Positions 21,946 to 30,661 of a DNA stretch of 64,000 nt are shown piece after piece. A program made the position numbers and the translations under genes. The notes under the pieces are model-generated. The model saw nothing but the letters and a program-made list of their open reading frames with translations, was not told where the DNA came from and did no database searches. Each line of letters begins with the position of its first letter. Positions within the stretch are counted from its first letter, which is position 1. This DNA comes from a virus, in IMG/VR virus record IMGVR_UViG_3300031251_000003, positions 94,107 through 158,106 of that record; one strand, given 5' to 3'.

Positions 21946-22268
21946 GGGAGCGTCCCGGTTTCGATGTGGAATTACGGTTCTGACTTCAATCCGTGGAAAC
22001 ATGATGGCCACGTAAAAAACATGTAACGTACTAAATGCAAACGCTAATATGAGCGTCCCGGACTTCATCCCTGATTGGGTAATGGATGAGTCCTTAGTTG
22101 CTGCTTAACTAGGAAACCTAATAAGCAGAGACTCTCAGGAAAGACTGAGTGGCGGAGGGGCGACTGCCCTCCATGCTTGACAAGTACGACCGTGATGGGT
22201 ATAATCTATGATTGTAAGCGTTAGTTCAACGATTACCGCAGACGCGAGTTCGACTCTCGCCGCTTCCA
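21946..22268 (+). ncRNA. ssrA: tmRNA
   Basis: GGGAGCG/CGCTTCCA acceptor with G3:U; T arm; resume context taaat-gca; tag ANANMSVPDFIPDWVMDESLVAA*. Confidence 0.93.
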
Positions 22269-22303
22269 TATGTACTATATTTCACTCCCTCCAAAGGAAG
22301 TTA

Positions 22304-29876: not shown

Positions 29877-29880
29877 TCGT

Positions 29881-29953
29881 TGCTCCGTAGATTAGAGGAC
29901 AAATCACTTCCCTGCGAAGGAAGAAATCACGAGTTCGAATCTCGTCGGGGCTA
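29881..29953 (+). tRNA. tRNA-Arg(GCG)
   Basis: cttcc-CT-GCG-AA-ggaag. Confidence 0.85.
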
Positions 29954-29990
29954 TAGTTCAGCTAACACCGATTTATGATATAATAGGTAT

Positions 29991-30317
29991 CTCAGTAGAT
30001 GGACATACGCTGCATCGTGTATCTATCGGTGTAGAGGAAGTTCGGGACATCCTTCTAGGGGAGCCAAGGAACCTAGAGAAAAACGTGCGGCAGTAGTGGG
30101 AGTCAGGTGCATTGGGTAAACCTTCGGGCATAATGCGGTGCTATCACCCTCCTGACGCCTTACCACGAGAATCGGCGGGATGCGATCACAAGCAGATACA
30201 TCAGCTACGATGATATCGGGTAGTGAGCAGCCCTTCGGGGCCAGGGATTGAACAGACCCTGAGATAGATGTATGTCGCCCTTGACAGGGTACAAAATTCC
30301 GGCTATAATCTACTGAA
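29991..30317 (+). ncRNA. rnpB: RNase P RNA (catalytic subunit)
   Basis: P1 tcagtagat/atctactga, P2 gacatac/gtatgtc, CR-I GAGGAAGTTCGGGAC, P5 catcc/ggatg, AGATAGATG, CR-V ACAAAATTCCGGCTAT. Confidence 0.9.
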
Positions 30318-30326
30318 GCAATGTAC

Positions 30327-30398
30327 GGCGATAAGCCTGCGGTGGGCAACTTCTCTCATAAGGAAGTCTGAGGTAAGGTTCGATTCCTACTATCGCTA
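30327..30398 (+). tRNA. tRNA with CAT anticodon (Met or Ile2)
   Basis: cttct-CT-CAT-AA-ggaag. Confidence 0.8.
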
Positions 30399-30400
30399 CT

Positions 30401-30661
30401 ATGAGCAAACACAACAAAACCAAGATCGAAAAGGTACTAAGGAACGAAGTCAACGTACTACGTTTCAAGCCGAAGACAGATCCTAAGGACTCTAAGCCAG
30501 AGAAGAAGATCGGCAAGTTCGCTAACTGGTGTCGTCTTCAGGGTCATCCTGCAACGTGCGGGTGTGCCTATAGCAAGATCGAAATCTCGGCTAAGAACCA
30601 TCCAGTTAGTAATGGAGACTGTGTTAACGGCAGAGACTGCCCTAACCACCCGAGAAGGTAG
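30401..30661 (+). CDS. Basic Cys/His hypothetical protein
   Basis: 86-aa ORF filling the gap between two tRNAs. Confidence 0.55.
   Translation: MSKHNKTKIEKVLRNEVNVLRFKPKTDPKDSKPEKKIGKFANWCRLQGHPATCGCAYSKIEISAKNHPVSNGDCVNGRDCPNHPRR

Follow-up and report, generated by a model that had tools for sequence, protein, structure and literature searches.

A phage tRNA island carries a ribonuclease P RNA homolog with a rebuilt specificity domain

Introduction

Which RNA lies in the 372-nucleotide (nt) gap between a tRNA-Arg(GCG) gene and a tRNA-Met(CAU)-type gene of a phage transfer RNA (tRNA) island, and might it still mature tRNAs? The question is raised by the final 64 kilobases (kb) of the 158,106-base-pair (bp) IMG/VR record IMGVR_UViG_3300031251_000003, a stretch of 64,000 nt that is called the window here and within which coordinates are given as positions. 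The gap holds an element of 323 nt (29993–30315, plus strand), measured from one P1 strand to the other, which had been predicted from the letters alone to be a phage-borne ribonuclease P (RNase P) RNA with a non-standard specificity domain. RNase P RNA is among the few universal ribozymes, and its substrate-recognition half normally belongs to its most conserved parts. In the literature that we searched, no paper described an RNase P RNA encoded by a phage. In this study, we concluded that the element is almost certainly a phage RNase P RNA homolog whose specificity domain has been rebuilt.

Homology to recognized RNase P RNAs

The window RNA was reached through its relatives and not through direct model matches. 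An Rfam scan of the window at gathering score found no RNase P family, a permissive scan of 29900–30450 against all Rfam families found nothing related to RNase P at an expectation value (E) ≤10, and searches of the whole genome with RF00010 (type A) and RF00011 (type B) came back empty, although controls gave matches. The classes other than type A (type B RF00011, archaeal, type T RF02357, nuclear and MRP) gave no Rfam match at the locus at E≤10. A search with the phage portal protein identified five related IMG/VR contigs, with portal proteins 85% identical in G001 and 68% identical in G002. The G001 copy (L006:1112-1563), which was reached via a 17-nt exact match, is flanked by tRNA-Arg(GCG) and tRNA-Met(CAU). 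The G002 copy (L010:13248-13545) lies in the syntenic interval and has fully canonical GAGGAAAGUCCGGGC and ACAGAACCCGGCUUAUC.

L010 was matched by RF00010 over model positions 1–367 (64.4 bits, E=1.7e-19), and RF00010 was its best-scoring clan member. The alignment covers P1–P3, P5, P15–17 and the joiners, and skips about 140 positions of the specificity domain. A P15/L15 motif common to the first three copies led to further metagenome members, of which L024, L031, L090, L098 and L106 are full-length, L033 and L038 are truncated and L050 is identical to L006. The eight full-length members, the window included, are the family referred to below. Three of them were also matched by RF00010: L098 at 47.1, L090 at 40.1 and L031 at 33.4 bits (E 8.5e-12 to 3.9e-7). 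The original prediction had named cmsearch with RNase P models as its check, and the outcome was divided: the window itself had no match at E≤10, and four relatives matched RF00010 at E 4e-7 to 2e-19. The members missed by this model (L024, L106, L006 and the window) are those with a variant conserved region I (CR-I), and CR-I and CR-V are fully canonical in four members. As the Rfam models miss half of the family, viral RNase P RNAs are under-annotated. Within IMG/VR, a scan with the P15/L15 motif returned only G001 and G002, and exact patterns for the P4 strands and for J18/2–P2 found only the already-known relative.

For a leave-out test, an nhmmer profile was built from the four RF00010-recognized members only and run against the 158-kb phage genome. 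It found a single locus, 30002–30237 (E=1.7e-9), where a further, collinear match covers 30244–30303. The alignment continues through the middle region (GUAGUGGGAG ... CGCCUUACCAC), and the non-canonical module there is therefore homologous within the family. Synteny, the RF00010 matches of the relatives and the leave-out profile together bear out the predicted phage-borne RNase P RNA as far as homology is concerned, and show at the level of sequence that the window RNA is a homolog of RNAs recognized by Rfam as RNase P.

Catalytic-domain elements and covariation

The type-A elements of the catalytic domain are all present in order. The landmarks of the original prediction had been assigned correctly, as judged by sequence reading and a script check, and they keep their order and covary in eight of eight members, far more than chance would give; its boundaries (29991–30317) agree with ours within 2 nt. 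The elements outside the specificity domain are as follows.

29993–30000, plus: P1 5' strand CAGUAGAU; 8 of 8 Watson-Crick pairs with 30308–30315
30002–30008, plus: P2 5' strand GACAUAC; pairs with 30270–30276, double-sided changes in 5 of 6 counted columns
30010–30034, plus: P3 hairpin CUGCAUCG / CGGUGUAG; script check and pair columns
30034–30048, plus: CR-I-like GAGGAAGUUCGGGAC; contains the P4 5' strand
30039–30047, plus: P4 5' strand AGU-u-CGGGA, with the bulged U at 30041 or 30042; found by RNAalifold, unprompted
30048–30051, plus: P5 5' strand CAUC; pairs with 30179–30182, compensatory in 3 of 4 columns
30179–30182, plus: P5 3' strand GAUG; pairs with CAUC
30183–30226, plus: J5/15 CGA and P15 (UCAC 30186–30189 / GUGA 30223–30226); P15 predicted by RNAalifold
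30195–30217, plus: P16/17 hairpin with the 6-nt loop AGCUAC; P16 predicted by RNAalifold
30219–30221, plus: GGU, the type-A CCA-binding motif; the homologous GGUAGG of L010 is aligned to CGGGUagg of the model
30230–30261, plus: hairpin pair at the P18 position (GCCC-UUCG-GGGC; CAGGG...CCCUG); both in eight of eight members, with differing sequences
30262–30276, plus: J18/2 with CR-IV-like AGAUAGAU, then the P2 3' strand GUAUGUC; 17-nt exact match to G001, aligned by nhmmer
30278–30289, plus: P19-like hairpin CCCU-UGAC-AGGG; optional, in five of eight members
30291–30304, plus: CR-V-like ACAAAA (joiner J2/4, ACAGAA in type A), then the P4 3' strand UUCCGGCU (30297–30304); RNAalifold and pair columns
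30308–30315, plus: P1 3' strand AUCUACUG; pairs with the P1 5' strand

P15 of the window has the type-A internal-loop form, whereas type B has a hairpin-type L15. Two peripheral extensions were seen in relatives, namely about 65 nt of extra sequence in the L006 P3 loop (L006:1130-1205) and a common extension with GGUCGAAAGCCC in the second P18-position hairpin of L006, L031, L090 and L098.

All eight members have the 15 assigned helices in the sequence known from RNase P, and 553 of 555 positions were pairable by script. Because the helix strands had been chosen by the analyst, two checks were added, an unguided RNAalifold prediction and pair counts in fixed register. RNAalifold, given no input structure, predicted P4 with its bulged U, P5, P15, P16, P18a and Ha (a hairpin of the specificity domain). 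Whole-length MAFFT alignments did not keep register in P1, in P2 or in the specificity domain, and the pairs were therefore counted by script in 39 fixed-register columns over the eight members, with P15 left out because it was part of the search motif. Base pairs were present in 310 of 312 cells and double-sided changes in 31 of the 39 columns; in every helix, none of 500 partner shuffles matched the observed pairing. P1 was fully complementary in all eight members despite unrelated sequences.

P4 deserves separate attention. Pairing was found in 62 of its 64 cells and double changes in five of eight columns, and its geometry of 3 bp, a bulged U and 5 bp is the same as in canonical AAG-u-CCGGG. 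The canonical members pair this strand with CCCGGCUU, whereas the window, L024 and L106 have AGU-u-CGGG(A/G) with (U/C)(U/C)CCGGC(U/C). Judged by these strands, the sequence of P4 is rewritten with compensation and its geometry is kept. The pair counts and foldings show covariation support for P1, P2, P3, P4 (the pseudoknot with its bulged U), P5, P15, P16/17 and the P18-position hairpins, and the aligned sequences show that the active-site joiners (GAGGA, AGAUAGAU and ACA-A-AA) and the GGU of L15 have been retained. Identity between the window RNA and those of G001 and G002 is 64–68% over aligned columns, and that of the flanking tRNAs is 61–78%. The compensatory pattern, the conserved single-stranded joiners and a divergence no faster than that of the tRNAs argue for selection on a working RNA.

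These results also bear on whether the element has anything to do with RNase P. It could be a chance likeness, another structured RNA or a 108-amino-acid (aa) open reading frame (ORF) on the minus strand (30023–30349), and such a reading could appeal to the missing Rfam match in the window, to the span of the ORF and to a z-score of −0.02 for the minimum free energy (MFE) fold of the element. The z-score is uninformative, since the RNA is pseudoknotted and this statistic is insensitive to pseudoknotted ribozymes, and the ORF was rejected as a coding region because it is not conserved. Against this reading stand the transitive homology, with E=1.7e-9 to RNAs that RF00010 matches at up to E=2e-19, and the covariation in every core helix. 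Its probability is negligible, and we regard it as refuted by the RF00010 matches of the relatives, the leave-out profile and the covariation.

A rebuilt specificity domain

The Rfam type-A consensus between the P5 strands consists of P7, P8 (UAAC loop), P9 (GNRA loop), P10/11, ACAGAAA, P12, GUGAAA, P13 and P14. The corresponding region is 127 nt long in the window (30052–30178) and 83–138 nt across the family. Neither a canonical CR-II (ACAGAAA) nor a canonical CR-III (GUGAAA) box was found between the P5 strands of the window or of the family, and the P7–P11 cruciform and the P8 and P9 hairpins are not present in the P5-to-P5 region of the family. The non-standard specificity domain without these boxes, as first predicted, was thus borne out, and what replaces it follows one plan in eight of eight members: Ha–L1–Hb–GA–Hc–GUCUAA–Hb'–L2, with GCCUUA for GUCUAA in the window. 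Its parts in the window are listed here.

30054–30077, plus: hairpin Ha, UCUAGG / CCUAGA stem with the 12-nt loop GGAGCCAAGGAA; RNAalifold, double-sided changes in 5 of 6 pairs
30078–30095, plus: linker L1; part of the remodelled specificity domain
30096–30099 and 30163–30166, plus: helix Hb, GUGG / CCAC; plan common to eight of eight members
30100–30101, plus: GA, between the Hb 5' strand and Hc
30102–30156, plus: variable hairpin Hc; specificity-domain region
30157–30162, plus: GCCUUA, between Hc and the Hb 3' strand
30167–30178, plus: linker L2; ends the remodelled specificity domain

The joiner before Ha is short, usually CAA. Ha has a covarying stem of 4–6 bp and a loop that mostly measures 12–14 nt, two members having loops of 8 and 19 nt; the loop sequence UGAGACUnnAGAAG is common to the three closest relatives and differs from that of the window. 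Hb is a helix of 4 bp, and the Hc hairpin ranges from 10 to 65 nt. L1 and L2 could pair in a weak helix of 4–7 bp in seven members, the linker of the eighth, L010, not being counted. RNAalifold recovered Ha alone within this domain, because the variable Hc is misaligned.

The loop of Ha is complementary to the 6-nt loop of P16/17 (L17) at matching positions, although the sequences involved vary from member to member (AGACU/AGUCU, UGGC/GCCA, GUGC/GCAC, AAGCU/AGCUU and GGCU/AGCC). The mean number of Watson-Crick pairs between the two loops was 4.2 within a member, compared with 2.6 when members were mismatched. With moderate confidence, this predicted contact can be taken as the counterpart of P6, of which the 5' strand would be displayed in a hairpin loop.

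In its compact members, the module between the P5 strands is shown to be about half the usual size. By the evidence of its common plan and sequence, the specificity domain is a conserved replacement and not mere decay. The truncated member L033 (oriented, ~1290-1400) has an Hc expanded by about 200 nt, and by eye its insert contains an apparent short ORF of about 34 codons that is rich in Cys and Trp.

The tRNA island and its transcription

The phage genome is 100% complete according to CheckV and contains tailed-phage genes for baseplate, portal, terminase, a DnaE-type polymerase and ribonucleotide reductase. Judged by the polymerase, the closest cultured relatives are Rhodococcus phage E3 and cluster-C-like mycobacteriophages, at only about 30% identity. 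The tRNA island occupies about 12.1–30.8 kb of the window and comprises 46 tRNA genes and a transfer-messenger RNA (tmRNA) gene, all on the plus strand. The tmRNA (21946–22271, 96 bits) has a tag ending ...LVAA, and its homolog in G002 encodes a similar one. Around the RNase P RNA, the following features were recognized.

29880–29954, plus: tRNA-Arg(GCG), the upstream neighbour; ARAGORN and Rfam, with 38 nt between its end and P1
29976–29984, plus: extended −10-like box TGATATAAT; read from the sequence, 8 nt ahead of P1
30281–30309, plus: promoter TTGACA-N17-TATAAT, 12 of 12 consensus positions; runs from the P19 loop through CR-V and P4 3' into the P1 3' strand
30327–30399, plus: tRNA-Met(CAU)-type gene; ARAGORN, beginning 11 nt past P1

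In G001 and G002, the homologs likewise follow this tRNA-Arg(GCG). With the Rfam tRNA model, for which the threshold is 29, the tRNA-Met(CAU)-type gene reaches only 24.4 bits, and its D-arm is odd. Directly past it, 30401–30661 encodes a basic Cys-rich protein of 86 aa, which has counterparts of 44–48% identity at the equivalent site of G001 and G002. Neither this protein nor the other small neighbouring ORFs matched a Pfam or PHROG family, and no claim of a protein cofactor is therefore made for them. A von Willebrand factor A (vWA)-like upstream gene was considered as a synteny anchor and dropped because it is not conserved.

An own promoter had been proposed for the RNA. The TGATATAAT box is indeed present, but the promoter scan found no −35 partner for it and no counterpart in the relatives, and in L006 and L090 the RNA starts at the final base of the preceding tRNA. 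As the RNA abuts the upstream tRNA in these two relatives, it would normally be made within the transcript of the tRNA island. On the other side, the tRNA-Met(CAU)-type gene begins 6–11 nt past P1 in four of eight members (the window, L098, L106 and L006), and in L031 and L090 a tRNA-Met(CAU) lies upstream instead, so that the RNase P RNA always stands beside a tRNA with a CAU anticodon. The perfect promoter inside the 3' part of the element has similarly placed TTGAC(A/T)-N17-18-TAnnnT counterparts in six of eight members; transcripts predicted from it would begin a few nt past the end of the RNA, just before the next tRNA.

Among 139 tRNAs that neighbour family members, 45% have A as the −1 leader base; among 170 that neighbour canonical RNase P RNAs of phages, 12% do. 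These figures come from phylogenetically related arrays and from ARAGORN starts that may be off by one. U and C dominate at −1 near the canonical RNAs. None of the 309 phage tRNAs has an encoded 3' CCA, although the family RNA retains the CCA-binding GGU. RnpA (PF00825) was not found in the window, in the complete 158-kb genome, in G001 or in G002, which extends the earlier statement that the window lacks rnpA. With no RnpA gene in the phage, a holoenzyme could form only with the protein of the host.

These features raise the idea of a re-targeted ribozyme, in which the core is active and the choice of substrates has shifted towards phage pre-tRNAs, the tRNA-Met-like gene, tmRNA or tRNA-like elements of the island, perhaps free of RnpA or with an unrecognized phage protein. 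Across the family, both the sequence and the structure of the module between the P5 strands are conserved, a pattern that points to function more than to loss; the same idea can draw on the sub-threshold tRNA-Met(CAU)-type gene of the window with its 6–11-nt spacing in half of the members, on the frequency of A at −1, on J5/15 being CGA and not CAA, and on the small conserved basic Cys-rich protein encoded downstream. The relatedness of the arrays and the uncertain tRNA starts weaken the −1 statistic, the GGU motif and the joiners are ordinary, and the neighbouring protein matches no family. We consider such re-targeting quite unlikely; altered specificity, first suggested for the tRNA mimics, is possible but unsupported on the present comparisons, the −1 base being the one lead. 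A more specific version is also unlikely: in it, the Ha loop kissing L17 would stand in for P6 and the GA/GUCUAA internal loop for CR-II/III, and the resulting phage-specific RNase P may favour CCA-less, A(−1)-rich pre-tRNAs or the tRNA-Met-like gene and may skip RnpA or use an unrecognized phage protein. If specificity were changed in this manner, the phage would own a private channel of tRNA maturation.

Distribution on viral contigs

The ten family members tested (eight full-length, L033 and L038) all lie within or beside tRNA arrays, and the lineage was found only in tRNA arrays on phage-like contigs. Representative genomes, one per species, of 185,579 bacteria and archaea were scanned with the family motif; none of the 27 matches lies near CR-I, J18/2 or CR-V. 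Blastn with the elements of the window, L010, L015 and L016 against 50,697 GenBank phage records found only two CR-I fragments with E=1, both at the ends of unannotated contigs, and nothing was detectable by blastn among the PLSDB plasmids.

Canonical RNase P RNAs also occur on viral contigs. Exact canonical CR-I/CR-V pairs were found on about 40 of 2.9 million IMG/VR contigs, many of them at the tips of short provirus contigs, in what is likely host flank. Ten contigs of 20–463 kb each (L138, L140, L154, L156, L164, L168, L170, L148, L159 and L161) carry a full-size RNA that matches RF00010 at 181–280 bits inside a dense tRNA array, so that the association of RNase P RNA with phage tRNA islands is recurrent. 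Three shorter RNAs (L014–L016; 290–300 nt, 103–173 bits) have each lost different peripheral elements: L015 is without P16/17, L014 without P13/14, and L016 without P12–14 and P18. On its 202-kb viral contig, L015 also has a group I intron (L015:3325-3528, minus strand, 68 bits), which is separated from the RNase P RNA by about 3 kb. Within this set, the window family is a diverged compact branch of the RNase P RNAs of phage tRNA islands.

Proposed function

Considering all the above results, we favour the explanation that the window RNA is a diverged, phage-borne descendant of a bacterial type-A RNase P RNA. That it acts as a tRNA 5'-maturase with host RnpA has a probability of roughly 0.6. 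In a plausible model, the RNA would be transcribed within the tRNA-island transcript and freed by processing of the flanking tRNAs, and RNase P cleavage at the 5' end of the downstream tRNA-Met would define its own 3' tail. The phage RNA would pair up with the host RnpA protein, and this holoenzyme would cut the 5' leaders of the 46 pre-tRNAs and the pre-tmRNA of the phage. The contact between the Ha and P16/17 loops might brace the rebuilt domain in the place of P6, and this domain presumably still positions the tRNA body, by contacts other than the canonical T-loop modules. During heavy transcription of the island, the gain may be more 5'-processing capacity or independence from the RNA subunit of the host.

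Several observations weigh against this explanation. The window, L006, L024 and L106 are unmatched by any RNase P model at E≤10, and the matched relatives (33–64 bits) do not reach the gathering score, which is 100. The RNA lacks the canonical modules for T-loop docking (CR-II/III), and the P6-like contact of the window amounts to 3 bp only (AGC/GCU, 30062–30064 with 30204–30206). In E. coli numbering, its P4 has G for A67 and U for G68, with compensation, and its J5/15 is CGA where type A has CAA, at the counterpart of A248. A67 and G68 are near-invariant in cellular RNase P RNAs, and these P4 and J5/15 positions have been implicated in metal binding and in recognition of the −1 leader base. 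Furthermore, the phage has no RnpA gene.

The same substitutions at near-invariant positions, together with the missing Rfam match and the lost modules for docking the tRNA elbow, could point to a non-catalytic derivative that has kept its fold as a sponge or regulator of host RnpA, a spacer, a processing signal or a promoter carrier, with cleavage lost. The perfect sigma-70 promoter over P19, CR-V and P1, which recurs in six of eight members, fits such a role. However, compensatory evolution keeps the P4 pseudoknot, its bulged U and all core helices, the single-stranded joiners are conserved across eight diverged lineages, a constraint beyond the need of a spacer or promoter, and four members have fully kept canonical CR-I and CR-V; about 30 nt would suffice for the promoter. 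We consider loss of cleavage unlikely.

A natural lineage that swaps its recognition module and rewrites P4 with compensation, in phages without the protein subunit, is a ready-made experiment. It addresses how little is needed for tRNA recognition, which part of the P4 sequence is dispensable, and whether phages take over tRNA maturation besides tRNA supply.

Comparison with known systems

The closest resemblance is to bacterial type-A RNase P RNA (RF00010; E. coli M1 RNA, rnpB), with which the window RNA has in common P1–P5, the P4 pseudoknot with a bulged U and the CR-I/IV/V joiners. The P15–P16/17 internal loop with GGU and the optional P19 are like type A and unlike type B. The window RNA is shorter than type A, with 323 nt compared with the 367 consensus positions of RF00010; the RNase P RNA of E. 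coli has 377 nt. It also differs from type A in that Ha–Hb–Hc replaces the P7–P11 cruciform, CR-II/III and P13/P14, the 5' strand of P6 would lie in a hairpin loop, two hairpins occupy the P18 site, P4 reads AGU-u-CGGGA and J5/15 reads CGA, and it is encoded by a phage without rnpA and stays below the Rfam thresholds.

A second comparison is with type T of the Thermoproteaceae (RF02357), an archaeal RNase P RNA of about 200 nt that has essentially no specificity domain and works with archaeal proteins. Both have kept the catalytic domain and altered the specificity domain; unlike type T, the window family has kept a conserved module of 83–138 nt.

The canonical RNase P RNAs of viral contigs (L138 and the others, and L014–L016) likewise lie in dense phage tRNA arrays. 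They score 103–280 bits, are mostly 318–358 nt long and have a spacing that fits a standard specificity domain, whereas the window family mostly escapes the model. In the alignments, L014–L016 have kept P7–P11 and ACAGAAA, each with other deletions, and the window family has kept none of these.

The nearest published precedent (Behra et al., 2022, PMC9569102) is found in Mycolicibacterium austroafricanum and M. sp. YC-RL4, which have extra, horizontally acquired copies of RNase P RNA; their genomes contain an additional, phage-like tmRNA as well. Those copies are chromosomal, flank an endonuclease gene and were not placed in a phage.

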